Notes: generated by a model from the letters alone, not told the origin. Counted from the first letter of the stretch, positions 186-21,413 are shown. The stretch: DNA of 48,755 nt from Armatimonadota bacterium (GCA_037443365.1 JBBIOM010000012.1:1250-50004), one strand, 5' to 3'. Numbers and translations are program-made.

Positions 186-1220
186 GTGAGAACCTTTGTC
201 GCCGTGCTGGCCGCGACGATGGCCGTCGTGGTGCTCGCCACCGGACTGGGCCTTGCCCAGCCGGCCAGGCAGACCACCTGGAAGTTCACCCTGGACTTCA
301 TCGTGCAGGGACCGCAGGCGCCCTTCCTGGTCGCCCTGGAGAAGGGCTACTACGCCAAGGAAGGCTTGAACATCACCATAGACCGCGGCTTCGGATCGGC
401 CGACGCCGTGAGCAAGATCGCCGGCGGCGCGTACAACCTGGGCTACGCCGACATCAACTCGATGATCGAGTTCAACGCCAGGAACCCAGGCCGGGAACTG
501 GTGGCCATCGCGGTCCTGCTGAACGAGCCGCCCTTCTCGATCATCACGCTGCGCCGGGAAGGCATCACGCGCCCGATCGAGCTCTACGGGAAGAAGCTTG
601 GCGCGCCGGCCGGCGACGCCCCGCGCCGCCTCTGGCCGCTCTTCGCCCGCGCGGTGGGCATGCACCCCGCCTCGGTGGAGTGGATCACCATGGACGTGCC
701 CCTGCGCGAGCCGATGCTGGTGCGGGGTGACGTCAACGCCATCTCCGGCTTCTACTTCACCTCGTTCATCAACCTGAAGGCGGCGCGCGTGGATCCGGCC
801 GAGATCATCGCGTTCATGTACAACGACCAGGGCCTCCCCCTGTATGGCAACGCCATCATGGCACCGCCCTCCCTGCTCGAGCGGGAGCCCGAGGCGGTCC
901 GTGGGTTCCTGAGGGCGTTCATACTCGCGCTGAAGGACACGATCACCAACCCCGCGGAGGCCATCGCCGTGGTCAAGCGGCGCGACCCGCTGCTGCGCGA
1001 GGACGTCGAGCTCGAGCGGCTGCAGCTAGCGCTGCGGCACAACATCCTGACAAGGGACGTCCGGGCCAACGGCTTCGGCGTGATCAAGGGCGAGCGCCTG
1101 AGCCGCTCCATTGACCTGGTGGCCGACGCGTTCGGCCTGCCGACGAAGCCCGCCTGGCAGCGTGTGTTCACGGACAAGTTCCTTCCTCCAAAGGCCGAGA
1201 GGATGCTTCCAGAGAGGTAG
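186..1220 (+). CDS. ABC transporter substrate-binding protein, NMT1/THI5-like (NitT/TauT family)
   Basis: Signal peptide; TLDF..QGPQAPF.VALEKGYY..EGL.I.I.RG.GS motif; GTG start with SD AAGGAGGG. Confidence 0.9.
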   Translation: MRTFVAVLAATMAVVVLATGLGLAQPARQTTWKFTLDFIVQGPQAPFLVALEKGYYAKEGLNITIDRGFGSADAVSKIAGGAYNLGYADINSMIEFNARNPGRELVAIAVLLNEPPFSIITLRREGITRPIELYGKKLGAPAGDAPRRLWPLFARAVGMHPASVEWITMDVPLREPMLVRGDVNAISGFYFTSFINLKAARVDPAEIIAFMYNDQGLPLYGNAIMAPPSLLEREPEAVRGFLRAFILALKDTITNPAEAIAVVKRRDPLLREDVELERLQLALRHNILTRDVRANGFGVIKGERLSRSIDLVADAFGLPTKPAWQRVFTDKFLPPKAERMLPER

Positions 1221-1226
1221 AACAGC

Positions 1227-1245
1227 GCTGGCCGGACTGGCCAGC
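1227..1245 (+). other. Intergenic stem-loop after the SBP gene
   Basis: GCTGGCC-ggact-GGCCAGC perfect 7-bp stem; such stems are common after ABC SBP genes. Confidence 0.4.
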
Positions 1246-1281
1246 CAGACGCACGGGGAGTCAACCTAGAGGAGTCAATCC

Positions 1282-2777
1282 ATGAGAAGACTGGGGCTCG
1301 AACGGGAGCTCGTAGATAAGAACGTTTATGCGCGCGCGGTAGGACGCTTCCGCGACGCCGGGATCGTGTTGCCCACCTTCGCGGAGCTGACGGATCCGGC
1401 CCGGATACCCGCGCGCATCCAGAAGGCCCTCTCCGGCGCAGACCCCGATGCTCCGCATCCGCTGAACCTCTTCAGGGTGCACTGGTTCAACGGCGCCGGC
1501 CGCGCCGCTCGCGTCGGGGTGCCCGAACACGTGGTGCTCCCCAAGGCGCTCACCGGCGTGGACGCGCGCATAGTGGTGGCGCTCGGCGACCGTTTCCCGA
1601 TGATCGGCGCCCACAAGGTGCTGGCCGCCTACGGGTGCCTGGCCCCGCGGATAGTCACCGGGCAGTTCGATCCCACCGCCCACCGCGCGGTCTGGCCGTC
1701 CACCGGCAACTACGCCCGGGGCGGCGTGGCCATCTCGCGCATCATGGGATGCCGGGGAATCGCCGTGCTGCCCCAGGGCATGAGCCGGGAACGTTTCGAG
1801 TGGCTCGAGCGCTGGATAGCCGATCCCGCGGACATCATCCGGACGCCCGGCACCGAGAGCAACGTCAAGGAGATCTATGACAAGTGCGCGGAGCTGGAGC
1901 GCGATCCGGCCAGCATCATCTTCAACCAGTTCTGCGAGTTTGGGAACCACCTGGTGCACTACCTGTGCACGGGCAGGGCGCTCGGGGTCGTCTTCGAGTC
2001 GCTTCAAACCGGCGAGCCGGGTCTGCGGCTGCGCGCCTTCGTGTCGGCCTCGGGCTCGGCCGGCACGCTGGGCGCCGGTGACTACCTCAAGGAGCGCTAC
2101 GGCGCGAAGATCGTGGCCATGGAGGCCCTCGAGTGCCCGACGATGCTCTACAACGGCTTCGGCGAGCACAACATCCAGGGCATCGGTGACAAGCACATCC
2201 CCTTGATCCACAACGTGACGAACACCGACGTCGTGACCGCGGTCTCGGATCAGAGCACCGACCGCCTCGACGTGCTGTTCAACACCCCGGCAGGACGTGA
2301 GTATCTGGTAAGCCGGCAGGGCGTGCCGCCCTCGGTGGTGGATCTGCTGCCGGCGCTGGGGCTCTCCAGCATCTGCAACGTGCTGGGCGCGATCAAGACC
2401 GCTAAGTACTTCGGGATGGGGCCCGAAGACGTGGTCGTCACCGTGGCCACCGACGGCGCGGCGATGTATGCCACCGAGAGGGAGAAGACGCTCCGGAAGC
2501 ACTTCCCGGCGGGGTTCGACGCGGTCGCAGCCGGCGCGACGTTCGCCGCGCACCTCGGCGGCGTCACCTGCGATCACCTGCTGGAGACGACGCGCGTGGA
2601 CAGGGACCGCATCTTCAACCTGGGCTACTTCACCTGGGTGGAGCAGCAGGGGGTCTCGCTCGAGGAGTTTGCGGCCAGGCGCGATCAGCGGTTCTGGACC
2701 GAGATGCGCTCGATCATCCCTGTCTGGGACGCGATGATCGAGGAGTTCAACGCCCAGACAGGAACGGCCCGCGCCCT

Positions 2778-2781
<4 letters not shown>
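1282..2781 (+). CDS. PLP-dependent enzyme, fold type II (cysteine synthase/TrpB-like), unknown substrate
   Basis: GAHK (PLP lysine), PSTGNY, GSAGTLG phosphate loop, IQGIG; SD GAGGAG. Confidence 0.85.
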
Positions 2782-4133
<1,352 letters not shown>

Positions 4134-4179
4134 GAGAATACATGGGCCGAACGGCTAGACCAATAGGGAGGGGAAGTTA

Positions 4180-5133
4180 ATGAGAAGCTTTCTCGGTAGG
4201 GATATCCTGTCGCTCAAGGAGTTCGAGCGCAACGAGTTCTTCCGGGTCTTCCAGGTGGCGGACGACCTGAAGCCCTACGCGCGGGACCGGAGCAACGGCG
4301 ATCTGCTCAAGAGGAAGACCCTGGTCACCGCCTTCTACCAGCCCAGCACGCGCACGCGCCTGGCCACCGAGGCGGCCATGCTGCGGCTGGGGGGCAGCGT
4401 GCTCGGGTTCTCGGACGCCAAGATGACCCGCGCCGGCGACTTCTATCAGGAGTCCATCAAGGACACGGTGCACATGCTCGAGTACTACGGCGACGTCATC
4501 GCCATGCGCCACTTCCAGCAGGGCGCCCCGCACGAGGCCGCGCGCTGGGCCTCGGTGCCGGTCATCAACTGCGGCGACGGCTGGGGAGAGCACCCTACCC
4601 AGGTGCTGATTGACCTCTACACGATCTACAAGGAGCTGGGCACGCTGGACGGGCTCAAGGTGCTGTGCGTGGGCGACATGCGCATGCGCACCATGCACTC
4701 CATCCTCTACGCGATGTCGCAGTTCGACATGGAGGCGTTCGTGGTCTCGCCGCCCGAAATGTCGCTGCTGCCCGAGTTCAAAGCCGAGCTGGACCTGCTC
4801 AACGTGCGCTACCGCGAGGTCGCCACGGCCGAGGAGGTCGTCGGCCAGGCGGACGTCATCTACATGGAACCCGTGGTCCAGCCCGACTACACGAAGTCGC
4901 GCGACGAACGAACGGGCGATTTGGGGCTCACCCCGGCCGCCTACAAGATCACGCGCCAGATGCTGCGCGAGCGGGGGAAGAGCGGCTCGATCGTGCTGCA
5001 CTCCCTGCCGCGCATGGACGAGCTTCCCCCGGACGTTGACGTCACGCGGCATGCCCGGTACTGGACCGAGGCGTTCAACGGCGTGGTGGTCCGCATGGCG
5101 CTGCTGGCCCTGGTATTGGGCGCGGCGGAATAG
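4180..5133 (+). CDS. Aspartate-carbamoyltransferase-like transcarbamylase with altered acceptor site
   Basis: STRTR, MRH, INCGDG.GEHPTQ, GD...RTMHS, LHSLPR; lacks the KGES and TRxQ motifs of true PyrB. Confidence 0.85.
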   Translation: MRSFLGRDILSLKEFERNEFFRVFQVADDLKPYARDRSNGDLLKRKTLVTAFYQPSTRTRLATEAAMLRLGGSVLGFSDAKMTRAGDFYQESIKDTVHMLEYYGDVIAMRHFQQGAPHEAARWASVPVINCGDGWGEHPTQVLIDLYTIYKELGTLDGLKVLCVGDMRMRTMHSILYAMSQFDMEAFVVSPPEMSLLPEFKAELDLLNVRYREVATAEEVVGQADVIYMEPVVQPDYTKSRDERTGDLGLTPAAYKITRQMLRERGKSGSIVLHSLPRMDELPPDVDVTRHARYWTEAFNGVVVRMALLALVLGAAE

Positions 5134-5144
5134 GAGGGACCAGG

Positions 5145-6122
5145 ATGCAGACACATCTACGCGGACGCGACCTCATCACGCTGCAGGAGTGGACCAAGGA
5201 GGAGATCGAGACCGCGCTGGACGTGGCCCTCGACCTCAAGCGCAGCCGGGCCCTCGGCCAGCCGCACGCCATCCTGCGCGACAAGGTGCTCGCGATGTTG
5301 TTCTTCTTCTCGAGCACGCGCACGCGCGCCTCGTTCGAGGCCGGCATGGCGCAACTCGGCGGGCACGCGCAGTTCATCGAGAGCCGCACCACACAGATCG
5401 CCCACGGCGACACCGCCAAGGAGATAGGCGAGATCCTGGGGCGCTACAACGACGGCATCGCGATCAGGCACGTGGACTGGCGGGCGGGCAACAAGTACAT
5501 CCGCGAGGTGGCCCAGGCCAGCCGGGTCCCGGTGCTCAACATGCAGTGCGACATCTATCACCCCTTCCAGGCGCTCGCGGATCTGCTGACCATCATCGAG
5601 AAGAAGGGCGACCCGCGCGGGAAGACCATCACCGTGAGCTGGGCGTACGCCGCCAGCTACCAGAAGCCGATCAGCGTGCCGCAGAGCCTGATCCTGCTGA
5701 TGCCCCGCTTCGGCATGAACGTGCGCCTGGTGCACCCGCCCGGATTCGAGCTCATGCCCGAGATCCTCGAGCAGGCCAGGGAGAACGCCCGCCGCGCCAA
5801 GGTGGGGTTCGAGATCATGGACGACTTCGAGGCCGGCTTCCGCGGCACGGACGTCGTCTACGCGAAGAGCTGGGGCGCCCTGCTGACCGTCAAGAACGAC
5901 GAGGAGGGCGCGAAGCTGTCCGCCAGGTACAAGGACTGGATCGCCGACGAGCGCCGCATGGCCATGGCCGGTGAGGACGCGATCTACATGCATCCCCTGC
6001 CCGCCGACCGCAACATCGAGGTCAGCGACGGCGTGATTGACGGCGCGCAGTCGGTCGTCTACGACGAGGCAGAGAACCGGCTGCACGGTCAGAAGGCCGT
6101 GATGGCCCTGACCATGAGCTAG
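5145..6122 (+). CDS. Ornithine-carbamoyltransferase-family protein, YgeW/knotted type
   Basis: SSTRTR, HPFQ, WAYAASYQKPISVPQS, YAKSWG, YMHPLPADR, EAENRLH; SD GGAGG. Confidence 0.85.
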   Translation: MQTHLRGRDLITLQEWTKEEIETALDVALDLKRSRALGQPHAILRDKVLAMLFFFSSTRTRASFEAGMAQLGGHAQFIESRTTQIAHGDTAKEIGEILGRYNDGIAIRHVDWRAGNKYIREVAQASRVPVLNMQCDIYHPFQALADLLTIIEKKGDPRGKTITVSWAYAASYQKPISVPQSLILLMPRFGMNVRLVHPPGFELMPEILEQARENARRAKVGFEIMDDFEAGFRGTDVVYAKSWGALLTVKNDEEGAKLSARYKDWIADERRMAMAGEDAIYMHPLPADRNIEVSDGVIDGAQSVVYDEAENRLHGQKAVMALTMS

Positions 6123-6153
6123 CGCGCGGCGCGGCAGCAAAGGGGGATTGAAC

Positions 6154-7104
6154 ATGGCCAGACGCACCGCCGTGGTCGCGATAGGCGGGAACTCACTGAT
6201 CAAGGACTCAAAACGCCAGACGGTACAGGACCAGTACGAGGCCGCGGGCGAGACCTGCCGGCATGTAGCATCCATGATCAAGGACGGCTGGGATGTGACG
6301 ATCGGGCACGGCAACGGCCCCCAGGTCGGCTTCATCCTGCGCCGCTCGGAACTGGCGGCCCACGAGCTGCACGAGGTGCCGCTCGACGTCTGCGGCGCCG
6401 ACAGCCAGGGCGCCATCGGCTACGCGCTCCAGCAGAACCTGTACAACGAGTTCCGCCGGCTCGGCCTGAACAAGAGCGCCGTCACCGTGGTGACCCAGGT
6501 CGAGGTGAGCGCGGACGACCCCGCGTTCCGAAACCCCACCAAGCCGATCGGCTCGTTCATGGACGCCGAGCGCGCCCGGCGCCGGCGTGAAGAGGAAGGA
6601 TGGACCGTGGTCGAGGACGCCGGACGGGGCTGGCGGCGGGTGGTGCCTTCACCTGCACCGATCCGCATCGTCGAGGAAGAGGCGGTCCGGCGCCTCATAG
6701 GCGAGGGCTTTGTCGTGATCACCGTCGGCGGGGGCGGCATCCCCGTGGTGTCCGATGCAAGTGGCAACCTGCGAGGCGTGGCCGCGGTCATAGACAAGGA
6801 CCTGGCGTCGTCGCTGCTGGCCACGGTCATAGGCGCCGACCTCTTCGTGATAACCACCGCGGTCGAGCAGGTCGCGCTCAACTTCGGCAAGCCCAACCAG
6901 CAGGCGATACGGCAGATGACGCTGTCGCAGGCCAGGGAGTACCTGGCCGAGGGCGTGCACTTCGCGAAGGGCAGCATGGCCCCCAAGATGGAGGCGGTCA
7001 TAGGATACCTGGAGCGGGGCGGGGGCGAGGCGCTGATAACCAACCCCGAGAACCTCGAGCGGGCGTTGCGCGGCGAGACCGGCACGCGCATCACCGCGGG
7101 TTGA
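6154..7104 (+). CDS. arcC: Carbamate kinase
   Basis: AIGGNSL, HGNGPQVG, QGAIGY, NPTKPIG, EDAGRGWRRVVPSP, GGGGIPV, AVIDKD, GSMAPK; ATG 6154 preferred over TTG 6148. Confidence 0.95.
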   Translation: MARRTAVVAIGGNSLIKDSKRQTVQDQYEAAGETCRHVASMIKDGWDVTIGHGNGPQVGFILRRSELAAHELHEVPLDVCGADSQGAIGYALQQNLYNEFRRLGLNKSAVTVVTQVEVSADDPAFRNPTKPIGSFMDAERARRRREEEGWTVVEDAGRGWRRVVPSPAPIRIVEEEAVRRLIGEGFVVITVGGGGIPVVSDASGNLRGVAAVIDKDLASSLLATVIGADLFVITTAVEQVALNFGKPNQQAIRQMTLSQAREYLAEGVHFAKGSMAPKMEAVIGYLERGGGEALITNPENLERALRGETGTRITAG

Positions 7105-7117
7105 AAGCGGCGGCGGG

Positions 7118-9766
7118 TTGAAGGCACTGGAGTTCGAGCTCAACGGGCATAGGGTCTCGCTGGAGGTCCGCGAGGACGCGAGCCTGCTGGAAGTGCTCCG
7201 CGAGCAGTGCGGCCTGACCTCGATGAAGAACGGGTGCGCGCCGGAGGGCTCGTGCGGCGCGTGCACGGTACTGCTCGATGGCAGGGCAGTGGTGTCGTGC
7301 GCCCAGCCGGCCACCCGGGCCGCGGGCCGGCGCGTCACCACCCTGGAGGGGCTCCCAGAGGAGCACCGCGCCCAGTGGGCGGACTGCTTCGTCGCCACGG
7401 GCGCGTCGCAGTGCGGGTTCTGCACCCCTGGCATCGTGATGAAGGCCGAGTCGCTCCTCGCGCGCAATCCCGATCCGTCGCGCGAGGAGATCACCCGGGC
7501 CCTGGCCGGCAACCTCTGCCGGTGCACCGGCTACGTCAAGATCATTGACGCCATAGGGCACGCGGCCGCGGCGCGGCGAGGGAAGCCGGTTCCATTGCCC
7601 GATCGCGGCGGCCGGGTGGGGACGCGCGCCGCGCGCTACCAGGGCCGCGACCTCGCGCTGGGGCAGAAGCAGTTCGTGGCCGACATGCGCGTCCCGGGCA
7701 TGCTCCACGCCGCGGTGCGGTGGTCCGATCACCCCAGGGCCAGGGTGCTGCGGATCGACGCCTCGAAGGCGCGCGCCGCTCCCGGCGTCGTCGCCGTGGC
7801 CACGTGGCGCGACGTTCCCGGAGAGCGCCGGGTGGGGTTGATCTTCAACGACTGGCGGCAGTTCGTGGCCGAGGGCGAGACCACGAGCTACGTCGGGGAC
7901 GTCCTGGCGGTCGTGGCGGCCGAGAGCCAGCACGAGGCCCGCGCGGCCGCGGCCCAGGTCGAGGTGGAGTACGAGGTGCTTCCTCCGGTCACCGATCCCT
8001 TCGAGGCGCTGGCAGAGGGCTCTCCCCAGATACACGCGATGGGCAACCTGCTCTCCACAACGAAGGTGCAGCAGGGCGACGTGGAGGCGGCGCTGGCGGG
8101 CGCGGCGTGCGTGGCCACCGAGACCTTCCGCACCCAGGCGATAGAGCATGCCTTCCTTGAGCCCGAGGCCTGCCTGGCGGTGCCCTCGGGCGACGGCGGA
8201 GTGCACTTCTTCTCGCAGGGGCAGGGCATCTGGGAGGATCGCCGTCAGGTGGCGTCGGTGCTGGGCCTCCCCCTGGAGAGGGTCCGGGTCACGCTTCACT
8301 CGAGCGGCGGCGGCTTCGGCGGCAAGGAGGACCTGAGCATCCAGGCGCACGCCGCGTTGCTGGCGGTCGCAACCGACCGGCCCGTGATGCTGGCGCTGTC
8401 GCGGAGGGAGAGCATACGCTTCCATCCCAAGCGCCATCCCATGACCATGGAGTACACCGTGGGCGCCGACGCCGAGGGTCGCCTGCTGGCGGTGCGCGCG
8501 CGCATCACGGGCGACACCGGCGCCTACGCCAGCGTCGGGGACAAGGTCCTGGAGCGGGCCGCCGGGCATGCCTGCGGTCCCTACCGCGTGCCGAACGTGG
8601 ACGTCGAGAGTAGGGCGGTCTTCACCAACAACCCGCCCTCGGGTGCCATGCGCGGGTTCGGGGTGAACCAGGTCTGCTTCGCCATGGAAGCGATGATGGA
8701 CATCCTGGCCGCGCGGACCGGGCTGGACCGCTGGGAGATCCGCTGGCGCAACGCGCTGGATGTGGGCGATACCTTCGCCACAGGGCAGCGGCTGGGTCAG
8801 GGCGTGGGCCTCAAGAAGACGCTCCTTGCCGTGCGCGACGCGTTTCGGTCGGCGCGCTACGCCGGGATCGCCTGCGCGGTGAAGAACACCGGCATCGGCA
8901 ACGGCCTGACCGAGTACGGCAGGGCGATACTGCGCGTCGAGGAGGATGGTGCGGTCACGCTGTTCCACTCGTGGACCGAGATGGGGCAGGGCGTCAACAC
9001 CGTCCTGGCGCAGGTGGCCTGCGAGGAGCTGGGCCTCGAACTGGGTCGCGTGCGCGTCGTGGTGGACACGGTGCGCGATCTGGATACCGGTGAGACCACG
9101 GCGTCGCGCGCCACGGTCCTGGGCGGGTTGGCGGTCATCGAGGCCGCTAAGCGCCTGCGCGCCGCGCTCGGGGAGGATCTGCCCGCAGACGCCGCAGGCG
9201 TCCATGCGCGCCTTGGGACGCTGGCCGGGCAGGAGTTCCGCGGGGAGGTCGTGATAGACTGGACGTCCAAGCCGACCCCGGGCGCAGCCGACCAGGTCAC
9301 GCACTTCGCGTACGGCTGGGCCACCCAGGTCGCGATCCTCGACGACGAAGGCCGCCTGGCCAGGGTGGTCGCATGCCATGACGTCGGCCGCGTCATGAAT
9401 CCGACCCTGCTCGAAGGGCAGATAGAGGGGTCCATCCACATGGGGATGGGCTATGCGCTTTCCGAGGAGCTGGTGCTGGAAGGCGGCGTGCCCATTACCG
9501 ACACCCTCAAGTCGCTGGGCATCGTGCCCCCGAGCGCGATGCCCAAGGTCGAGTGCATCTTCGTCGAGGAGTTCCAGCCCGAGGGTCCGTACGGCGCCAA
9601 GGGGGTCGGCGAGATCGGCAACATCCCCACGGCCGCGGCGATCGCAGGAGCGCTGTGGGCCTACGATGGCATCCGGCGGACCCGGCTGCCCATGAAGGAT
9701 TCCCCTGCGGCGCAGGGGCTCGCGCCCGCGAAGGCGCGGCCTGGGCGCCCCGACAGGCCGGGCTGA
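7118..9766 (+). CDS. Xanthine-dehydrogenase-family molybdoenzyme, fused 2x[2Fe-2S] + Moco domains (architecture of selenium-dependent Xdh/XdhD)
   Basis: [62 protein letters not shown]; no FAD domain; TTG start. Confidence 0.9.
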   Translation: MKALEFELNGHRVSLEVREDASLLEVLREQCGLTSMKNGCAPEGSCGACTVLLDGRAVVSCAQPATRAAGRRVTTLEGLPEEHRAQWADCFVATGASQCGFCTPGIVMKAESLLARNPDPSREEITRALAGNLCRCTGYVKIIDAIGHAAAARRGKPVPLPDRGGRVGTRAARYQGRDLALGQKQFVADMRVPGMLHAAVRWSDHPRARVLRIDASKARAAPGVVAVATWRDVPGERRVGLIFNDWRQFVAEGETTSYVGDVLAVVAAESQHEARAAAAQVEVEYEVLPPVTDPFEALAEGSPQIHAMGNLLSTTKVQQGDVEAALAGAACVATETFRTQAIEHAFLEPEACLAVPSGDGGVHFFSQGQGIWEDRRQVASVLGLPLERVRVTLHSSGGGFGGKEDLSIQAHAALLAVATDRPVMLALSRRESIRFHPKRHPMTMEYTVGADAEGRLLAVRARITGDTGAYASVGDKVLERAAGHACGPYRVPNVDVESRAVFTNNPPSGAMRGFGVNQVCFAMEAMMDILAARTGLDRWEIRWRNALDVGDTFATGQRLGQGVGLKKTLLAVRDAFRSARYAGIACAVKNTGIGNGLTEYGRAILRVEEDGAVTLFHSWTEMGQGVNTVLAQVACEELGLELGRVRVVVDTVRDLDTGETTASRATVLGGLAVIEAAKRLRAALGEDLPADAAGVHARLGTLAGQEFRGEVVIDWTSKPTPGAADQVTHFAYGWATQVAILDDEGRLARVVACHDVGRVMNPTLLEGQIEGSIHMGMGYALSEELVLEGGVPITDTLKSLGIVPPSAMPKVECIFVEEFQPEGPYGAKGVGEIGNIPTAAAIAGALWAYDGIRRTRLPMKDSPAAQGLAPAKARPGRPDRPG

Positions 9767-9777
9767 GGAGGCACGCG

Positions 9778-11103
9778 ATGCACCTTGCCCTGACCGGCGG
9801 CACCGTGCTCGTCTCCCTGGAGGAGCCCGCGCTGGTCCGGGCCGACGTGCTGATCGAGGGGGGCAGGGTGCGAGCGCTCGGGCAGGCCCCGGAGGGTGTC
9901 CCCCGCCGTGACTGCTCGGGCTGCCTGCTCATCCCCGGAAATGTCTGCGCGCACACGCACCTGTACTCGGCCCTGGCGCGTGGGATGCCCTATCGCCTGG
10001 ATCCGCCTTCCAACTTCACTCAGAACCTCCAACGCATCTGGTGGCGGCTGGATCGCGCCCTGGACGAGGAGACGGTGCGCACGTCGGCCCTGGCCGGCGC
10101 CATGGGCGCGCTGCTGTCCGGCACGACCACGGTGGTGGACCACCACGCTTCGCCGAATGCCATCTCGGGCTCGCTTGACGTCATCGCCGACGCCCTCGAG
10201 GAGATCGGGCTGCGCTCGGTCCTGTGCTACGAGACGACTGACCGCGACGGCCCCGAGCGGGCACGCGCTGGGATCGAGGAGAACCGGAGGTTCTTGAGGA
10301 CGCACCGCCCCTTGGCTGCGGGGCTGGTGGGCGCGCACGCGTCGTTCACTCTCTCGGAAGACACGCTGGCCGCCTGCGTCGAGGTCGCGCGCGCGGCGCG
10401 AGCGGGCGTGCACATCCACGTGGCCGAGGACCGCGCCGACCAGCGCGACTCCCTGGCGCGCTTCGGCCAGCGCGTGGTGGCGCGGCTGTCCCTGGCCGGC
10501 GCTCTCGACGAGCGGGCGGTCCTGGTCCACTGCGTTCACGTGGACGATACCGAGATCGGGTTGATTCGCCAGTCGGGCGCCGCGGTGGCGCACAACGCGC
10601 GCTCCAACATGAACAACTCGGTCGGGCGCGCGCGCGTGGGTCTGCTCGGGGACCGTGTGGTGCTCGGCACCGATGGCATCGGCGCCGACATGTTCGCCGA
10701 GTCAGCGGTCGCATACTGGCGAGGGCGCGAGGACGATCTCTCGCTGGGCTTCACCTGGCCGCTGCAGCGCATGGCCGCGGGCGCGCGCATGGCCGGGCGG
10801 ATCCTAGGCGAAGAGACGCTGGGACGCATACAGGCCGGTGCGCCGGCGGATGTCGCGGTGCTGGACTACGCGACCCCAACGCCGCTGCACGCGGGCAACC
10901 TGGCCGGTCACTGGCTCTTTGGCCTATCGGCGCTGCACGTGCGCGACGTGCTGGTGCGCGGCGAACTCGTGGTGGCCGACCGACGGCTGACGCGGGTGGA
11001 TCAAGACGGGCTCGCCGCGCAGGCCAGGGCGCAGACGGAGCGGCTGTGGCGCCGCCTCGAGGAGATTGGGCCTCACGAGTTCGAACCAGCGGGAGGAAGG
11101 TAG
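9778..11103 (+). CDS. ssnA: SsnA-like metal-dependent amidohydrolase
   Basis: [73 protein letters not shown] before ATG 9778. Confidence 0.85.
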
Positions 11104-11105
11104 CC

Positions 11106-12119
11106 ATGGCTTCCGGCAGCGGGCGCGTCGCCCTGTACCTGCAGGACAAGCATCCCATCCGTGAGGGAATGGAGTACGTGCGCTACGCCGAGGAGCGCGG
11201 GTTCGAGGCGGTGTGGCAGGCCGAGAGCCGGCTGGTGCGCGAGGCCACGATACCGCTGGCCGCGTTCGCCGCGGTCACCCGGCGGATCAAGGTCGGGACC
11301 GGGGTCATCAGCCTCTGGACGCGCAACGTGGGGCTGATGGCGGCCACGTTCTCCACCCTCGACGACCTGGCGCCGGGCCGGGTGATGCTGGGGATCGGCG
11401 CCTGGTGGGAGCCGCTGGCCACCAAGGTGGGCGTGGACCGGCGCAGGCCTCTAGAGGCGATGCGCGAGGTGGTCCTGGTCACGCGCCGGCTGCTGGCGAT
11501 GGAGCGGGTGACGTTTCACGGCGAGTTCGTGCACGTCACCGACATCGAGCTCGACATCGTGCACGGCGATCGCTCGCCCAAGAAGGTGCCGATCTACATC
11601 GGCGCCACCGGGATGAAGATGATGGCCCTCGCCGGCGAGATCGCCGACGGGGTGCTGCTCAACTACCTGGTAAGCCCTGCCTACAACGCGGCCGCGATGG
11701 AGGCCCTTGCCGCGGGCGCGGCCCGGGCCGGGCGGCGCGTCGAGGACATCGACCGGCCCCAGCTCGTGGTCTGCTCGCTGGACAGGGACCGCTCGGTGGC
11801 GCTCGACCGCGCGCGCGAGCTGGTGACGCAGTACCTGGGCCAGCAGCCGCACATCATGAAGGCCAGCGGGGTGGACCCGTCGCTGCTGGACGAGATCGGC
11901 AGGGTGCTCACCTGGCCGGCCGGGCCAGAAGAGATCCGCCGGGCGATGCGCCTCGTGCCCGACGAGGTGGTGCAGATGATCACAGCATCGGGCACCCCTG
12001 AGGAGTGCCGCGCCAAGGTGCGCGAGTACGCGGCCGCCGGGTGCACCTGCCCCATACTCTATCCCCTGGGAGACGATGTGCGCGCCATGATTGACGCCTT
12101 CGCGGAGGGACGGCTTTGA
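11106..12119 (+). CDS. LLM-class (luciferase-like) flavin/F420-dependent oxidoreductase, Mer-like
   Basis: [63 protein letters not shown]. Confidence 0.85.
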
Positions 12120-12922
12120 TCGAGCCCGCAGCCACGGAGGCCTTTGTCCGTCTCGACGGCGTCACGCTCGACTACCAGCACGAGGGCCAACCCGTCCGCG
12201 CCGTCGAGGACGTCAGCCTCAACGTGCGGCAGGGCGAGTTCGTGGTGGTGGCCGGGCCCAGCGGCTGTGGAAAGACCACGCTGCTCAAGGTCCTGGCCGG
12301 CCTGGTCGTACCCGGCAAGGGCAGCGCCAGCGTGGGGAGCGTGCAGGTGCGCGGACCCCAAAAGAACGTGGGCATGGCGTTTCAGAACCCGATCCTGCTG
12401 CCCTGGCGCAAGGTCATTGACAACGTCCTGCTCCCGATGGAGGTCGTCGCCCCGCACAAGGCGCGGTTCCGTCGGCACCGCGCGGAGTACGTCGCGCAGG
12501 CGCGGGAACTGCTCGCCTCGGTCGGCCTGGAGGGGTTCGGCGACCGCCATCCCTGGCAGATCTCAGGCGGGCAGCAGCAGCGGGCCAGCCTGTGCCGCGC
12601 CCTGATCCACAACCCTCAGATCCTGCTGCTGGACGAGCCCTTCGGCGCGCTGGACGCCTTCACGCGGGAGGAGCTCTGGCAGGTCCTGCAGGCCCTGTGG
12701 ATGCAGCGACGGTTCACGGTGCTGCTGGTGACCCACGACCTGCGTGAGGCGGTGTTCCTGGCGGATACGGTGTACGTCATGAGCACGCGTCCCGGGCGGA
12801 TCGTCTCGCGCACGCCCGTGGACATCCCCCGTCCGCGCACGCTGGAGGACACCTTCGGCGCGCAGTTCACCGATACGTATCACGAGATCAGGCGTCAGAT
12901 AGGCGAGGTGCTGGGACGATGA
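12116..12922 (+). CDS. NitT/TauT-family ABC transporter ATP-binding protein
   Basis: Walker [46 protein letters not shown]. Confidence 0.93.
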
Positions 12923-13695
12923 GGCGCGCTGGCCTGCTGGCCGAGTGGCTTCCTCCGCTGGTCGTGATCGTGCTCGCCTTCGCAATCTGGGAGGCCGGGG
13001 TCGCCCTGCTGCGCGTGCCCGATTTCATACTGCCCGCGCCCAGCAAGGTGTGGATGGCCCTGCTCAGATGGCGCGAGGCCATCTGGTTCAACGCGTCGCA
13101 GACGCTCTACACGACCCTTGTGGGATTCGCCATGGCGCTTGTCGGGGGAATGGGGCTCGGACTGGCCATCGGGTACTCCACCCTGGTTTACCGCGCGCTC
13201 TACCCACTGCTTGTGGGGTTCAACAGCGTGCCCAAGGCCGCGATCGTGCCCGTGCTCGTCATCTGGTTTGGAATCGGCACGGTGCCGGCGATCCTCACGG
13301 CGTTTCTCATCTCGTTCTTCCCCATAGTTGTGAACGTGGCGACCGGCCTGGCCACGCTCGAGCCCGAACTGCAAGACGTGCTCCTCTCGCTGGGCGCATC
13401 CAAGCGTGAGATCTTCACCAAGGTCGGCATCCCGCGGTCGCTTCCCTACTTCTTCGCGTCGCTGAAGGTGTCGGTCACGCTGGCGTTCGTGGGCGCCGTG
13501 ATATCGGAGACCGTGGCCTCGAACAAGGGCATCGGGTACCTGATGATCGCGGCCAGCTCGCGCTTCGAGGTGCCGCTCGTGTTCGCCGGCCTGATCGTGG
13601 TCGCCGCCATGGGCGTGGCGCTGTTTGCGTGCTTCGCGGTCATCGAGCACCGGCTCACGGGTTGGGCCTATCGGGGACCGGCGCTGACCGCCTGA
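12919..13695 (+). CDS. NitT/TauT-family ABC transporter permease
   Basis: Hydrophobic; ILPAPS, VPKAAIVP, WFGIG, FFPIVVN; ATGA coupling to the ATPase gene. Confidence 0.92.
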   Translation: MRRAGLLAEWLPPLVVIVLAFAIWEAGVALLRVPDFILPAPSKVWMALLRWREAIWFNASQTLYTTLVGFAMALVGGMGLGLAIGYSTLVYRALYPLLVGFNSVPKAAIVPVLVIWFGIGTVPAILTAFLISFFPIVVNVATGLATLEPELQDVLLSLGASKREIFTKVGIPRSLPYFFASLKVSVTLAFVGAVISETVASNKGIGYLMIAASSRFEVPLVFAGLIVVAAMGVALFACFAVIEHRLTGWAYRGPALTA

Positions 13696-13719
13696 TACTA
13701 ACGCCGAAGGGGTGCAGCC

Positions 13720-14346
13720 GTGGGAAAGCCGGCGCTGGTCATCGTTGACGCGCAGAACGACTCCTGCCTGCCGGGAGCGCCTTTCGAGGTGCGCGGCGCC
13801 TCGGGCGTGCTTCCCAACATCCGGAGGCTGCTCGACGCCTTCCGCAAGCACGGCCTGCCGGTCGTCCACGCGCTGAGGGAGTACCGGGCAGACGGCGCGG
13901 ACATCGAGATAACGCGGCGCGACCGGTTCGTGCGGGCCGGCGGCGCGTTCGTCCCGGGCACGCGCGGGCACGCGCCTGCGGACGGGCTCGAGCCGGCCCC
14001 CGGCGAGACCGTGGTGCCCAGGCAGCGCTGGAGCGCCTTCCACAAGACCGACCTGGAAGGCGCGCTTCTGGCGGCCGAGGTCGAGATCGTGGTGCTGGCC
14101 GGGATGGATACCGTGGGCAGCATACGGTGCACCGCGTTCGATGCGCTGGCCTGTGACTTCGAGGTCGTGGTGGCCTCCGATGCGACCGCCTCCGGCGACG
14201 CCGAGGCGCACAAGGCCAACCTGCGCGACATGGAGGCGTACGGCATCGAGGTCTCCTCGGCCGATCACATCACGTGGGCCCTGCCCAAGCGGTTGGGCCG
14301 GCGGCTCAAGGCGCGGCGCGACGAGGCGAAGTCCGGCCAGTCCTGA
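13720..14346 (+). CDS. Isochorismatase/cysteine-hydrolase-family protein with atypical catalytic residues
   Basis: LVIVDAQND, RWSAF..TDL, AGMDTVGSIRCTAFDA, VASDATAS. Confidence 0.8.
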   Translation: MGKPALVIVDAQNDSCLPGAPFEVRGASGVLPNIRRLLDAFRKHGLPVVHALREYRADGADIEITRRDRFVRAGGAFVPGTRGHAPADGLEPAPGETVVPRQRWSAFHKTDLEGALLAAEVEIVVLAGMDTVGSIRCTAFDALACDFEVVVASDATASGDAEAHKANLRDMEAYGIEVSSADHITWALPKRLGRRLKARRDEAKSGQS

Positions 14347-14605
14347 CCTGGGTCATCCCTCAGGAGCAGGGGCGTATCCAGGGTAACCTCCTTCCGGCGG
14401 CGTTGACCAACCGCACGTCCGCGGTCCACAGCTCGCATCCCAGCAGTTCGGCAGAGGCCAGGAGACAATTCGATACGGTGACAGGCAAGATGTGACGTCG
14501 TCAAGCACATGCCCGCCGACCGCCTGATCGAGTATTCCATTGCTGCCGGTCTTGGTCGTGTGGCGCGTCTTTGGTTGAAGGGCACGCTGTTTCACCCGGC
14601 ATCTG

Positions 14606-14829
14606 ATGCTGGCTGTTAGGCACACAGCGACCCGAAGATCCTCGGGGGTACGCCTGTGTTGGTAGGCGACCGCGTCCCCGTTCGGATTCTGTTCGACTGC
14701 CTGGAAGCTGGCGACCCGCTGGAGTGCTTCCTCGATCAATATCCGACCGTCAGCCGCGAGCAGGCGCTCGCCTCCCTCGGGACGCCTACAGGGTCAGTGG
14801 GACCGCTCGAACCTCCTGAGCGCCTCTAG
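14606..14829 (+). pseudogene. DUF433 (VapB45-like) antitoxin remnant, frameshifted or start-less
   Basis: Frame from 14623 reads HSDPKILGGTPVLVGDRVPVRILFDCLEAGDPLECFLDQYPTVSREQALASL; in-frame TAG at 14617-14619; ATG 14606 is in another frame. Confidence 0.7.
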
Positions 14830-16128
14830 AATCGCCCGCGCGCCGAACTCGACCGCCTCGACCGGAATGCGTTCGTCGGCCGCGTGCACTAATCGCGAGA
14901 AGTTCATCCCCTCGGGCAGGCGCATCGGCAGGAAGCCGTAGGTCTGGATTCCCAGCCGGGCGAAGAACCGCCCATCGGTGGCGCCGGGCATCAGATACGG
15001 CACCGGGATGCCGTCAGGATCCTCGTCGCGCAGAATCCCGGACAGCAGATCGAACATCCCCATGTCGGGTGACGCCGGACCGGGGTCGTGGCGGACCACG
15101 CCCATCTCGACGACCTCAATCAGAGCAACGCCGGCGCCCAGGATTGATCGCAGCTCGGCGATCAGGTCATCCGGACCGCACCCCGGCAGCAGCCGGCCGT
15201 CCATATCGAGTGTGATCTCGCTGGGGATCACGTTGAGCTTCTCGCCGCCGCGCACGATCGTGGCGTTGACGGTGTTGCGCAGCAGCGGGGAGAACGTCCG
15301 GCCGCGCTCGCCCATCAGCGCGAGCGCGCCGTCCGCGCGACGCGGGTCCAGCAGCGAGCGCAGGATCCAACTGGACGGCGGCCGCAGCGCGCCTGCAATC
15401 GCCTCTATCATCTGCCGGACCACCGGGGTCACGCGCACGGGCAGGTAGCGCCGGTCCATTGTCCTCAGTATGCGTCCGAGCCCTGCCATGGCGCCGCCGC
15501 GCATCGGCAGCGCGCCGTGCCCGCCGGGCCCGCGTATGGTCGCTCTCACCCAGCAGATCTCCTTCTCGGCGACCTGGATGGGATAGAAAGTACGGCCGCC
15601 GACCGGCATCGTGAACCCGCCGAACTCGCCGATGGCGTAGCGGATCCCGTCGAACAGCCCAGCGTGGCGCTCCACCAGGAACCTGGCGCCATCGTCGCCA
15701 TTGGCTTCCTCGTCGCTCAGGATCGCCAGTACGATGTCTCCGGCTGGCCGCAGGCCCTCGGCCCGGGCGCGCAGGAAAGCAGAAAGCAGCATTGCCACGC
15801 CGCCCTTCATGTCCAGGGCGCCGCGGCCCCAGACGAACCCGTCCACAAGCCGGCCCTCGAACGGCGGGTGCTGCCAGACCTGTCCCGCGGTGGTTACGAC
15901 GTCCACGTGCCCGTAGAGCAGTAGCGGCGGCGCGGTGCCTTCCCCGGCCAGGCGCGCAATCAGGTTGGGACGCTCCGGGTCGTGGGCGAGCAGCGTGGTC
16001 TCGAACCCGGCAGCGGTCAGCAGGTCGTTGATGTAGCCGACGCAGGCGGCTTCGCGGCCCGGGGGGTTGGTGGTGTCGAACTGGATCAGCCGCCGCAGCA
16101 GCTCGGCGGGGTGCTCGTGAACGGACAC
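14794..16128 (-). CDS. M20/M25/M40-family metallo-hydrolase (ArgE/DapE/Acy1-like)
   Basis: DTTNPPG, YGHVDVV, WGRGALDMKG, SDEE, GGHG, NVIP, GATDGRFF, HAADERI; SD AGGAGG. Confidence 0.92.
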   Translation of the reverse strand: MSVHEHPAELLRRLIQFDTTNPPGREAACVGYINDLLTAAGFETTLLAHDPERPNLIARLAGEGTAPPLLLYGHVDVVTTAGQVWQHPPFEGRLVDGFVWGRGALDMKGGVAMLLSAFLRARAEGLRPAGDIVLAILSDEEANGDDGARFLVERHAGLFDGIRYAIGEFGGFTMPVGGRTFYPIQVAEKEICWVRATIRGPGGHGALPMRGGAMAGLGRILRTMDRRYLPVRVTPVVRQMIEAIAGALRPPSSWILRSLLDPRRADGALALMGERGRTFSPLLRNTVNATIVRGGEKLNVIPSEITLDMDGRLLPGCGPDDLIAELRSILGAGVALIEVVEMGVVRHDPGPASPDMGMFDLLSGILRDEDPDGIPVPYLMPGATDGRFFARLGIQTYGFLPMRLPEGMNFSRLVHAADERIPVEAVEFGARAILEALRRFERSH

Positions 16129-16150
16129 GGAATCCTCCTGGGAATGTGGC

Positions 16151-18553: not shown

Positions 18554-19944
18554 GCCAGAGCGCTCCCTGCCCGGCGTCCGGCGATGCGCAGGGCAACGCG
18601 CCGGCCCTCCCAGGCTATCGCGGCCTCATCGGCGCCGACCAGGCGCGCGTCGCGCACCACCGCCCGTCCTTCCACGAACAGGTGCCGCACGCGCCCCGGC
18701 GAGCAGTGCACGAGCGCGGCTACGGGATCGGCCTGGGCGCCGGCGTGCTCCAGCCCATCCACCCCGAATATGGCCACATCGGCCCGACACCCAGGCCGCA
18801 GCGACCCGATGTCGTCGCGCCCCAGGCAGTCGGCGCCGCCCCGCGTGGCCACGCGCAGCGCCTCGCGCGCGCTCAGGGCCCGGGCGCCGCCGGCGCGCGC
18901 GACCAGCAGGCCTGTGCGCGCCTCCTCCAGCAGGTGCCCGCCGTCGTTGGAGGCGGATCCGTCCACGCCCAGGCCCACGCGCGCGCCCGCATCCAGCAGC
19001 AGCCGCACCGGTGCTATGCCTGATCCCAGGCGCAGGTTTGAGGTCGGGCACCAGGCCACGCCGGTCGCGCTCGACGCGATCTGGGCGACGTTCCCATCCG
19101 AGAGGTGCACGCAGTGGGCCAGCCAGACATCAGGCCCCAGCCAGCCGAGATCGGCGAGCAGGTCCACGGGCCGCTTGCCGTACGTGGCGCGGCAGTAGGC
19201 GTCCTCGTCCTGGGTCTCGGCGATGTGCGTGTGCAGCCGCACGCCGAGGCGCCGGGCCAGCGCCGCGGAGTCCCGCATCAGGCGGCCGGTGACCGAGAAC
19301 GGCGAGCAGGGCGCCACCGCGATGCGCAGCATGGCGCCGGGCGCGGGATCGTGGAAGCGCCTGACGGCATCCTCTGTCTGCGCCAGGATCGCGTCCGCGT
19401 CCTGCACGATCGCATCCGGCGGCAGCCCGCCCGCGGACTCGCCCAGGTCCATCGATCCCCTGCAGGGATGGAAGCGGAGCCCTATCGCGCGGGCGGCCCC
19501 GATCTCGGCTTCCAGCAGGTCCAACCCGTTGCTCTTCCTTGGAAAGACGTAGTGGTGGTCGGTGCTGGTCGAGCAGCCAGAGAGCGCCAGCTCGGCCAGC
19601 CCCACGCGCGCGGCCGCGAACACCCACTCCTCATCCACCCCGGCCCAGATCGGGTAGAGCGCGCGCAGCCATCCGAAGAGCCCCTGGTCCTGGGCGCGTG
19701 CGCGCGTCAGCGTCTGGTACAGGTGATGGTGCGCGTTGACGAGGCCGGGCAACGCAACCGTACCGCGCCCGTCCACGCGCTCGAGGCCGCCGGGGGCAGC
19801 GCCGGGCGCCGCCTCAGGCGGAGACCCTTGTCCGACCCATGTGATCACCCCGTTCTCGATCAGGAGCGAACCGCCGGGAATCTCGGTCCCCGCGTCGTCC
19901 ATCGTGACGACGACGTCGCACGCCTCGATCAGGATCCTGCTCAT
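18550..19944 (-). CDS. 8-oxoguanine-deaminase-like amidohydrolase (AtzB/TRZ family)
   Basis: [80 protein letters not shown]; start MSRILIE at 19944. Confidence 0.88.
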
Positions 19945-20414
19945 GCAGTCCGCCCGCGCAGGCGCTCGGCGGCCAGTCGCACCGCGTCGAGGATCTTCAC
20001 GTAGCCGGTGCACCGGCACAGGTTGCCCGAGAGCGCCTCGCGCACCTCTGCCTCGTCGGGCGACGGATTGCGCGCGAGCAGGTCGGCCGCGGCCACCACC
20101 AGCCCGGGCGTGCAGAAGCCGCACTGCACCGCGCCTGCCTCCAGGAACGCCTCCTGCACCGGGTGCAGGCCCTCGGGTGATGCCAGGGCTTCCACGGTGC
20201 GCACCTCGCGCTCGTGCGCCTGCGCGGCCAGCACCAGGCAGGAGCACACCAGGTCGCCGTCCAGCCACACCGAGCACGCGCCGCACTCGCCCTGCTCGCA
20301 CCCGTTCTTGGAGCCGAGCAGCCCCAGGTGCTCGCGCAGGACGTGCAGCAGGCTGGCTTCGGGTGCCGGCCTGGCCTCGCGCCACTGGCCGTTGACCTTG
20401 AGGCGAATCAGCAT
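19941..20414 (-). CDS. Xanthine dehydrogenase 2Fe-2S subunit (CoxS/PucE type)
   Basis: [27 protein letters not shown]; start MLIRLKVNG at 20414. Confidence 0.93.
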
Positions 20415-21301
20415 CGCGCTCCCCGGCCTTCGGGGCCTGCTCTCCGGTCCTGGAGCGCCCAGTGCAACGCGCGGCGCGCCAGCACCGCGCAGGCATGCCG
20501 CCGGTAGGCAGCGGTTCCGCGCACATCGTCGATCGGCCTGGCAGAGGCGGCCACACGCGCGCCGAACTCCTCGAGCACCCCCGGGGGCAGCGGCGCGAAT
20601 GCGTCGTCCCACGCGCCTGCCTCGGCCAGCTCGCGCGCGGCGAAGGCCTCGGCCTCGTGCGCGCGCAGCACCACAGGGCCCACCGATCCGAGCGCGACCC
20701 GCACGGCGCGCCGGTCCTCGTCCAGCACCAGGCAGAGACTGGCGATCGCGATCACCATGGCGCTGCGCCGTCCTACCTTGGAGAACGAGGAGGGCCCGCG
20801 CGCCACCCGCCACCGGGCACCCAGGATCAGCTCGTCGGGTGCGATCGCGGTCTTCTTGGGGCCGATCAGGAACCGGTCCCAGGGCAGCGTCCGGGTGCGC
20901 CCGCCGGATGAGGCGAGCACCACCTCGGCATCCGAGGCGGCCAGCACAGGCAGCGCATCGCCCGCCGGCGAGGCGGTGCCCAGGTTGCCTCCGAGGGTGC
21001 CCCGGTTGCGGATCTGGGGCGAGCCCACCGAGCGCGCCGCCTGCGCCAGCGCCGCGATGTCGGGCAGTTCCCTGAAGATCCGGGCGTACGTCATGCCGGC
21101 CCCGAGGAAGAGCGCGTCGCCTTCGCGGCCCCACAGCTGCAGCTCGGGCAGGCGCGAGATGTCCAGGGCGACCTCCATCCGGCGGCGTCCCAGGTTCATC
21201 TCGACCATCAGGTCGGTCCCGCCGGCAAAGGGGGTGGCCTCGGGCTGGTCGGACTTCATCCCGAGCGCCTCGTCGAGCGTGCGCGGGCGCAGCATCTCCA
21301 T
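20408..21301 (-). CDS. Xanthine dehydrogenase FAD-binding subunit (CoxM/PucC type)
   Basis: [51 protein letters not shown]. Confidence 0.93.
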
Positions 21302-21403: not shown

Positions 21404-21413
21404 ATCCAGTCCA

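Follow-up and report, generated by a model that had tools for sequence, protein, structure and literature searches.

Why should one operon hold two differently built carbamoyltransferases ahead of a single carbamate kinase? The question is raised by positions 4180-7104 of a stretch of DNA of 48,755 nucleotides (nt) (the window; JBBIOM010000012.1:1250-50004 of GCA_037443365.1, an Armatimonadota bacterium), in whose coordinates all positions are given. The initial annotation had placed there a tandem of carbamoyltransferases feeding one carbamate kinase, and three open reading frames (ORFs) were found at exactly these positions: CT1, a PyrB-like carbamoyltransferase with a GGGAGGGG stretch 8 nt upstream of its ATG; CT2, starting 11 nt after CT1; and the kinase gene, starting 25 nt after CT2. 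Both carbamoyltransferases match the Pfam families OTCace_N and OTCace, and the third ORF matches AA_kinase. In the best-supported reading, towards which I lean modestly, both carbamoyltransferases would phosphorolyse ureido groups, and two ATP would be gained.

Two differently built carbamoyltransferases

CT1 reads STRTR, MRH, HPTQ, RTMHS, RAGDFYQES, YMEPVVQ and HSLPR in translation. It was aligned with E. coli PyrB from NC_000913 in a six-sequence MAFFT alignment (A1), with 15 graded relatives (A3, 17 sequences) and with 92 cluster representatives (94 sequences), and in all three alignments the carbamoyl-phosphate site of PyrB (S52, T53, R54, T55, R105, H134, Q137 and L267) and R167 were present. 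Changed were S80 (to R), K83/K84 (to F/Y), R229 (to P), Q231 (to V) and P266 (to S), and the aspartate-binding residues K84, R229 and Q231 (RxQ motif) are thus missing. This agrees with the motif reading of the initial annotation, in which STRTR, HPTQ and RTxHS were kept and two loops replaced by RAGDFYQES and MEPVVQ. R167 and R105 are the residues which I take to bind the alpha-carboxylate in aspartate carbamoyltransferase (ATCase). The gapped reading offered by A1, with an 8-residue insertion and K/R at positions 229/231 of CT1, was rejected because HMMER comparison with solved ATCases, the larger alignments and a strand boundary in the AlphaFold2 (AF2) model all favoured the ungapped reading.

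In the AF2 model of CT1 (predicted local distance difference test, pLDDT, 94.3) a strand at 226-229 (VIYM) leads into a 240s loop of low confidence, and the model's best Foldseek matches were ATCase chains with template modelling (TM) scores of 0.86-0.89. The check proposed by the initial annotation, structure prediction with alignment to PyrB, gave for CT1 a predicted ATCase catalytic-chain fold with the aspartate-site residues missing. Scores against curated families were divided: CT1 lies just above the cut-off of the ATCase equivalog TIGR00670 (248.5 vs 236.95) and below that of NF002032 (217.9 vs 263). The 92 nearest full-length representatives fell largely into two classes, with 43 carrying S80, K84, R229 and Q231, and 42 carrying R80 and none of the other three. 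In a FastTree phylogeny, from which four truncated sequences were left out, CT1 and two close representatives formed a clade (support 1.0) within the R80 class.

Close relatives of CT1 are numerous, comprising more than 120 clusters at 81-94% identity, and a genome scan returned 586 relatives, the best 80 of which are 76-93% identical to CT1. Labels of the metagenome-assembled genomes (MAGs) among these 80 include Acidimicrobiales, Gaiellales, Thermoleophilia, Streptosporangiaceae, Chloroflexia, Limnocylindrales and Phycisphaerae. Only two full-length representatives from a library clustered at 50% identity were more than 50% identical to CT1. All named public records of the family that were examined are called 'aspartate carbamoyltransferase'. 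Among the MAGs of several phyla (L008-L087) CT1 is 76-93% and CT2 74-96% identical, the next relatives of CT1 being at most 50% identical; this high identity across phyla points to strong constraint, horizontal spread of a module, or both.

Proteins of this kind have a precedent. Barba et al. (2013; PMC4016543) defined pseudo-ATCases as proteins that keep STRT and HPTQ, have lost RxQ and carry a third motif altered from HP[LG]P. With STRT, HPTQ and HSLP present and RxQ absent (compared with Table 1 of that paper), CT1 is by its motifs a pseudo-ATCase in their sense. Their group 1 protein Rxyl_2847 from Rubrobacter xylanophilus adjoins a carbamate kinase and in vitro phosphorolyses allantoate to ureidoglycine and carbamoyl phosphate. 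Group 2 (Nocardioides sp. JS614) adjoins a ygeW homologue, xdhABC and hyuA, was given no function, and has the motifs H[ST]LP and GX[SC] at R230-Q232, and group 3 has HSLP and VXP. CT1 was set against these groups by published motifs and context, and fits group 2 by context (ygeW homologue, xdh) and HSLP. It reads PVV in place of GX[SC], and VQP two residues on would fit the signature of group 3; by motif it falls cleanly into neither. A pseudo-ATCase paired with a ygeW homologue has therefore been on record since 2013 and is not new.

The likeness to Rxyl_2847 is nevertheless considerable: both are ATCase-derived, keep STRT/HPTQ, have lost RxQ and belong to purine catabolic clusters with a carbamate kinase close by, and alpha-ureido phosphorolysis of a diureido acid, established there, would be shared. 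Rxyl_2847 differs in its substrate allantoate and in its oxidative pathway with uricase/allantoinase context, neither of which had a match among the window ORFs scanned with Pfam and NCBIfam. It also keeps equivalents of S80/K84 (table in Shi et al., 2015), whereas CT1 has R80 and no K84. In Nocardioides sp. JS614, hyuA is adjacent, in contrast to this window. As a side observation, Shi et al. (2015) assign H(T/S)LP to the Rubrobacter enzyme and Table 1 of Barba et al. gives HPLA for group 1, a mismatch that may reflect different sequence versions.

CT2 and E. coli YgeW share 39% identity, as compared with 24-26% between YgeW and two ornithine carbamoyltransferases (OTCases) in the same alignment (A2), and they have the proline-rich loop WAYxxSYxKPxSVPQ in common. 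Shi et al. (2015) proposed second-substrate residues for YgeW that include Q160, S200, K203, K270, D334, E344, L331 and D124. The first seven of these are kept in CT2, out of nine YTCase substrate-site positions, the two that differ being D124 (V in CT2) and C330; the OTCases differ from the site at Q160, S200, K203, K270 and D334. The YgeW-type motifs that the initial annotation had attributed to CT2 were thus recovered. With 325 amino acids (aa) against 396 aa, CT2 falls 71 residues short of YgeW and is without the extra N- and C-terminal helices and the two-helix 240s insertion that Shi et al. (2015) describe for YgeW (A2).

CT2 falls below all curated NCBIfam cut-offs, including those for YgeW (NF005538, 198.7 vs 453; TIGR03316, 186.8 vs 500) and for OTCase (NF001986, 255.7 vs 306). 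The OTCase motifs DxxxSMG and HCLP are not in CT2, which reads YAKSWGALL and HPLP. Its model (pLDDT 89) matched N-acetylornithine carbamoyltransferase (AOTCase; TM score 0.89) and OTCase (0.87) best in Foldseek. AOTCase is knotted (a trefoil knot) and OTCase unknotted. Foldseek was dropped as a discriminator for CT2; it did not separate YgeW from OTCase/AOTCase. Because CT2 is shorter, scores below the cut-offs and has a model nearest to OTCase/AOTCase, it is judged to be YgeW-like and not a member of the YgeW family. Public records name its family 'ornithine' or 'N-acetylornithine carbamoyltransferase'.

The third gene scores above the carbamate kinase cut-offs (TIGR00746, 372.7 vs 358.25; NF009007, 404 vs 266) and its product is 50% identical to E. 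coli YqeA. Its position directly after CT2 resembles that of carbamate kinase genes adjoining YgeW/YTCase genes.

A reductive urate cluster and its recurrence

The reductive urate (2,8-dioxopurine) pathway was described in E. coli and Clostridium sporogenes with the components XdhD-YgfM, YgfK, SsnA, HyuA, YgeW, YqeA, YgeY as well as YgeX (Li et al., 2025, PMC12507026; Liu et al., 2025, bioRxiv 10.1101/2025.04.24.650524). According to these reports, XdhD forms 2,8-dioxopurine, YgfK carries out the reduction step, and SsnA and HyuA open the rings to give 2,3-diureidopropionate. YgeW then phosphorolyses one ureido group, the carbamoyl phosphate yielding ATP via YqeA, YgeY hydrolyses the other, and YgeX converts diaminopropionate to pyruvate. 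Li et al. also describe Chloroflexota clusters with an F420-type luciferase-family enzyme instead of YgfK, and in their analysis of gene neighbourhoods every PF00185 protein was scored as 'YgeW'.

The cluster in the window is an F420 variant of this pathway, which agrees with the initial annotation's guess of 2,3-diureidopropionate as a substrate. It shares with the published pathway a selenium-type xanthine dehydrogenase (XDH), SsnA, a YgeW-type carbamoyltransferase and a carbamate kinase in one cluster, and the coupling of carbamoyl phosphate to ATP. It differs in having a luciferase-like F420-type (LLM) oxidoreductase in YgfK's place, as Li et al. noted for Chloroflexota, and this enzyme is likely the reductase replacing YgfK. 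A second difference is the lack of YgeY, YgeX and a clustered HyuA, instead of which there are an ATCase-derived second carbamoyltransferase and two divergent pyridoxal phosphate (PLP) enzymes, PLP1 and PLP2. Orthologues of YgeY and YgeX were not found in the source genome (2.22 Mb, 97.7% complete), the best matches scoring 54 and 38 bits, respectively. The arginine deiminase pathway is similar in that ureido phosphorolysis is pulled by carbamate kinase to give ATP. It differs in having a single carbamoyltransferase and a single ureido group, and the OTCase of the source genome lies on another contig.

Linkage was counted in the best 80 of the 586 CT1 loci; many of these are cut short, and a gene missing within 10 kb therefore says little. 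In 49 of the 80, CT1 is followed after at most 143 nt by CT2 (at least 74% identical); in 11, a CT2-like gene of 48-54% identity lies 4.9-8.6 kb off; and in 20 none was found, 15 of these offering under 6.4 kb of sequence downstream. For one further locus without CT2, the genome has a CT2-like gene 12 kb off. The pairing of CT1 and CT2 is no chance arrangement because it recurs in dozens of genomes. Other companions were PLP1 (60/80), XDH (59/80), carbamate kinase (48/80), SsnA (47/80) and the LLM oxidoreductase (39/80), with YgeY-like, YgeX-like and YgfK-like genes in two loci each (a third, partial YgfK match was left out). PLP2 or a gene resembling threonine synthase (ThrC-like) abuts CT1 in 45 of the 74 loci with sufficient upstream DNA, planctomycete loci included.

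Subsequently, 94 genomes of the window's phylum were scanned, one of which (G022) is unpublished and can be removed without altering anything. CT1 was present in 20, and a CT2-type gene in 30, namely all 20 with CT1 and 10 others. PLP2 was found in 19 of the 20 CT1-bearing genomes and in one incomplete genome, and YgeX in none of the 94. YgeY-like genes (E 1e-88 or better) occurred in eight genomes: 1 of the 20 with CT1, as opposed to 7 of the 10 in which a CT2-type gene occurs without CT1, the remaining three of these ten being 68-85% complete. In a single genus, YgeY without CT1 was seen in four genomes, and CT1 and PLP2 without YgeY in one. In a CT1-less cluster the order LLM-XDH-SsnA-CT2-like is accompanied by transporter genes and a YgeY-like gene, with unrelated genes beyond. 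Among CT2-bearing genomes of the phylum, CT1 and YgeY are nearly exclusive. Newly described here are the spread of the CT1 family, the count of CT1-CT2 linkage, the two PLP companions and this near-exclusivity with YgeY.

Proposed route and competing explanations

In the proposed scheme the three genes would form the energy-conserving end of an F420-dependent reductive urate pathway. CT2 would carry out the YgeW step, phosphorolysing one ureido group of 2,3-diureidopropionate, and CT1, standing in for the hydrolase YgeY, would phosphorolyse the remaining one. The single carbamate kinase would receive both carbamoyl phosphates, yielding two ATP per urate versus one in E. coli. Replacement of YgeY is supported because the genome has no YgeY and because CT1 and YgeY are nearly exclusive. 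These points, together with the allantoate-phosphorolysing pseudo-ATCase on record, give comparative support to the initial annotation's proposal of a substrate phosphorolysed at both ureido groups for two ATP, which stays a prediction. In the literature searched no earlier statement of two phosphorolyses was found; such clusters may appear in the supplements to the articles by Li, Liu and Barba and their co-workers, which that search did not cover.

Which enzyme would cut which group is a guess, held with lower confidence: CT1 may act on the 2-ureido (N-alpha-carbamoyl) group and CT2 on the 3-ureido (side-chain) group, in agreement with the order of Liu et al., who place YgeW at the 3-ureido group. 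The 2-ureido group is proposed for CT1 because the ATCase scaffold handles N-alpha-carbamoyl acids (carbamoyl-aspartate, allantoate), because the alpha-carboxylate arginines are kept and the beta-carboxylate site is lost, and because the CT1 gene keeps company with PLP enzymes that require the alpha-amine to be free. Cleavage by CT1 would free the alpha-amino group for PLP1 and PLP2, which would replace YgeX. A more specific version is put forward tentatively and with more doubt than trust, namely that in a fermentation-type urate pathway of environmental Actinomycetota, Chloroflexota and neighbouring groups PLP1-PLP2-CT1 may be a horizontally spread, unusually conserved module replacing YgeY and YgeX, with two ATP per urate and no ureido bond wasted. 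With CT1 on an ATCase scaffold specific for alpha-amino acids and CT2 on a YgeW scaffold specific for side chains, YgeW-type enzymes would then cut the 3-ureido group.

Several points weigh against two phosphorolyses of 2,3-diureidopropionate. The substrate is assigned from context; CT2 scores far below the YgeW cut-offs and its model matches OTCase and AOTCase best; CT1 passes, just, an ATCase cut-off, and is the only PyrB-like gene of its genome. The in vitro phosphorolysis by YgeW reported by Li et al. (2025) was weak. The regiochemistry is a guess here because Li et al. and Liu et al. disagree on the ureido group cut by YgeW, and the commentary by Percudani (2025; PMC12990295) lists cleavage order and position as open. 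HyuA, which makes diureidopropionate, lies outside the window, and HyuA-like genes occur in just 16 of the 80 loci. The compared genomes are kin, and perhaps two or three independent events lie behind the exclusivity. As exceptions to it, CT1, CT2 and a YgeY-like gene share one cluster in loci L012 and L017 and in the phylum genome G014 (G014:C42), with 40-55% identity of the YgeY-like gene product to E. coli YgeY. A CN-hydrolase elsewhere in the genome or the M20 peptidase of the window could be a ureido-group hydrolase. Finally, in the planctomycete locus L073, CT1 accompanies a ThrC-like gene with no purine genes within 10 kb, from which it follows that the substrate of CT1 may be more general.

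The source genome's one HyuA homologue (37% identity; TIGR02033, 541 vs 393) is on another contig, G000:C13 (L108:9210-11471, minus strand), where it adjoins the CN-hydrolase, which is AguB-like (249 vs 410). This pair of dihydropyrimidinase and CN-hydrolase probably serves reductive pyrimidine catabolism and could also act on urate-derived hydantoin and ureido acids. This CN-hydrolase was found in none of the 80 CT1 loci.

The L073 locus introduces an explanation that I regard as unlikely, though worth keeping in view: CT1 is catabolic but acts on another ureido compound, which might be ureidomethyl-hydantoin or 5-ureido-dihydrouracil, attacked at the exocyclic ureido group before the ring is opened, or else an N-carbamoyl amino acid with no link to urate. 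The ThrC-like PLP enzyme and CT1 would then be a general unit recruited by the urate cluster. The co-travelling of CT1 with PLP2 in the phylum, the lack of HyuA in the window and in 64 of the 80 loci, the L073 arrangement, which also lacks XDH and SsnA within 10 kb, and three further loci (L046, L055, L082) with kinase and CT1 and no XDH/SsnA would all suit it, as would the size and variety of the pseudo-ATCases (42 of the 92 nearest representatives). The frequency of XDH and SsnA around CT1 speaks against it, the exclusivity with YgeY fits the diureidopropionate step specifically, and absences from short loci carry little weight. A heteromeric transcarbamylase made of CT1 and CT2, the alternative raised by the initial annotation, found no support and is hardly credible. 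The two genes are adjacent here and in 49 loci, and active sites in this family lie at subunit interfaces (Shi et al., 2015); however, in the 11 loci where the CT2-like gene is distant it is only 48-54% identical when CT1 is 77-80%, unlike obligate partners. Moreover, CT2-like genes occur without CT1 in 10 genomes, some planctomycete loci have CT1 and no CT2, and the known family members described by Shi et al. (2015) are all homotrimers. Equally remote is the idea that CT1 works in the carbamoylating direction, for example making a ureido amino acid from a product of the PLP enzymes with carbamoyl phosphate from CT2. The equilibrium favours carbamoylation (PMC12507026; PMC4016543), anabolic diaminopropionate transcarbamylases exist, and PLP1 weakly resembles SbnA (29.8 bits), a diaminopropionate-forming enzyme. 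Against this stand the carbamate kinase in 48 of the 80 loci, the catabolic neighbours (XDH, deaminases, transporters) and the lack of biosynthetic cluster genes nearby in the window.

It is also very improbable that CT1 is the organism's working ATCase, maybe fed by purine-derived carbamoyl phosphate, as automatic annotation has it. This would account for the TIGR00670 score and the public name, and no other PyrB-like gene was found in the 97.7% complete genome, in its genus mates or in G013, G019 and G021; in these last three the third carbamoyltransferase is a canonical OTCase (G013 also has CarB and PyrF). The replacement of K84, R229 and Q231, the low NF002032 score and the setting of CT1 argue the other way: a pyrimidine-biosynthesis context (pyrC, pyrI, carAB) was not found around CT1, which sits in catabolic operons among PLP enzymes, CT2, carbamate kinase and XDH. 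Neither PyrF nor CarB was found in the source genome, and CarB was absent from all three genus mates tested. As proof of pyrimidine auxotrophy the missing PyrF and CarB are weakened, since three of seven genus mates keep pyrD-pyrF-pyrE. In one of these (L113, G032:C2, ~8777-17952) three transposase-like genes lie directly upstream, a site often occupied by pyrB/pyrC/carAB, and L113 looks like a pyrimidine operon being lost.

The initial annotation had tied its reading to separate pyrB/argF genes. The source genome has three carbamoyltransferase genes, namely CT1, CT2 and, on another contig, a bona fide OTCase (NF003286, 562 vs 515), and so CT1 remains its sole PyrB candidate. In my judgement this does not overturn the idea, because all five CT1-lacking genomes of the window's family are also without an ATCase and all three complete actinobacterial genomes with CT1 have a PyrB-like gene in addition. 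The five family genomes (G006, G007, G012, G027 and G031; 93-98% complete) each have a single carbamoyltransferase gene and no ATCase match. All of them have PyrF, and G006 has CarB. Canonical PyrB (>265 bits) is found in nearly all genomes of three sister families and, in the window's family, only in G010. By this comparison the family seems to be without a recognisable ATCase, relying either on an unrecognised enzyme or on uptake of a pyrimidine precursor. The lack of PyrB is a lineage trait independent of CT1, because it extends to the family genomes that lack CT1. The actinobacterial genomes (G001-G003) combine CT1, a CT2-like gene, a PyrB-like gene and OTCase, with the canonical ATCase motifs KGE and LRVQ read in one of the three (L099). 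G010 likewise has CT1 and a PyrB-like gene (L115) with canonical motifs, a combination not seen in the source genome or most of its family.

If two phosphorolyses do take place, the result would be a variant of the reductive urate pathway with double ATP yield. The gain in ATP would help to account for the conservation of the module (76-93% identity) and its spread in soil, peat, hot-spring and sediment bacteria, and a function would be provided for a large family (586 genome matches) now named 'aspartate carbamoyltransferase'. The CT1/CT2 pair is furthermore a natural experiment on the order and position of ureido cleavage, the point left open in Percudani's commentary. A second step that yields ATP might also raise the fitness of probiotics engineered to degrade urate. 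As a warning for annotation, the PyrB equivalog cut-off is passed here by what would be a non-ATCase.

Neighbouring genes

Genes on the plus strand run head to tail over 186-14346 (ORFs with Pfam/NCBIfam), with spacing from PLP1 to XDH ranging from a 4 nt overlap to gaps of 46 nt, in DNA of ~70% G+C. Table 1 lists these genes and those downstream; the region is a purine catabolism island.

Table 1. Features of the window, with scores (bits, or score vs cut-off) where given.
Feature	Position	Strand	Remarks
ABC substrate-binding protein (NMT1/SsuA-like)	186-1220	+	Pfam NMT1, 108 bits; first operon gene; kept with the cluster in several loci
PLP1, divergent cysteine-synthase-like fold-type II PLP enzyme, 499 aa	1282-2781	+	PALP, 40 bits
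PLP2, divergent threonine-synthase-like PLP enzyme, 451 aa	2778-4133	+	PALP, 134 bits; 4 nt overlap with PLP1 stop
CT1, pseudo-ATCase-type carbamoyltransferase (P0001), 317 aa	4180-5133	+	Predicted ATCase fold (TM 0.88); carbamoyl-phosphate site and R167 kept
CT2, compact YgeW-like carbamoyltransferase (P0002), 325 aa	5145-6122	+	39% identity to E. coli YgeW
Carbamate kinase (P0003), 318 aa	6148-7104	+	TIGR00746; true start maybe ATG at 6154
Se-dependent-type molybdenum hydroxylase with fused 2Fe-2S domain (XdhD/XdhAC counterpart)	7118-9766	+	TIGR03311, 979.8 vs 830.45
SsnA-type amidohydrolase	9778-11103	+	NF005540, 435 vs 444; 39% identical to E. coli SsnA; ORF opens at 9553, start uncertain
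Luciferase-like F420-type oxidoreductase (LLM)	11046-12119	+	Bac_luciferase, 238 bits; matches F420 LLM families
ABC ATPase (12116-12922) and permease (12919-13695)	12116-13695	+	Pfam/NCBIfam
Isochorismatase-family hydrolase	13720-14346	+	Pfam, 137 bits; among loci only in the closest, L008; not conserved with the cluster
M20 peptidase, no YgeY orthologue	14794-16128	-	NF005913, 368 vs 382; 40.8 bits to E. coli YgeY
Second purine operon	16151-21298	-	FAD subunit, 2Fe-2S subunit, 8-oxoguanine deaminase, PucD-type XDH
PucD-type XDH large subunit	16151-18553	-	TIGR03196, 884 vs 784
8-oxoguanine deaminase	18550-19899	-	NF006055, 613 vs 532
2Fe-2S subunit of second purine operon	19941-20450	-	
FAD subunit of second purine operon	~20480-21298	-	YgfM-like tblastn match
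Adenine deaminase	21399-23135	+	TIGR01178, 587 vs 472.5

The XDH of the first operon scores as the selenium-dependent type. The deaminase of the second purine operon (amid2) was considered as the missing hydantoinase and rejected, being an 8-oxoguanine deaminase. The M20 peptidase lies at the end of that operon and occurs in one of the 80 CT1 loci, that of the closest relative; with this single occurrence and its low score to YgeY, it was rejected as a YgeY equivalent.

PLP1 and PLP2 are two fold-type II PLP enzymes with a lysine motif, located at the place where YgeX would be. The closest solved relatives of PLP1 are cysteine synthases (60 bits), its lysine motif is GAHK, and the ESM Atlas gave no function for it beyond 'PLP-dependent enzyme'; in PLP2, GSHK aligns to the PLP lysine motif of threonine synthase. 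In planctomycete loci, the ThrC-like enzyme directly upstream of CT1 is more ordinary (TIGR00260, 215 vs 167). Two planctomycete MAGs illustrate this arrangement. The pair stands by itself at L073:8597-10954. At L046:6828-10375 the ThrC-like gene is again upstream of CT1 with a carbamate kinase gene upstream, and close by, on the opposite strand, is a YgeW gene whose product shares 59% identity with E. coli YgeW.

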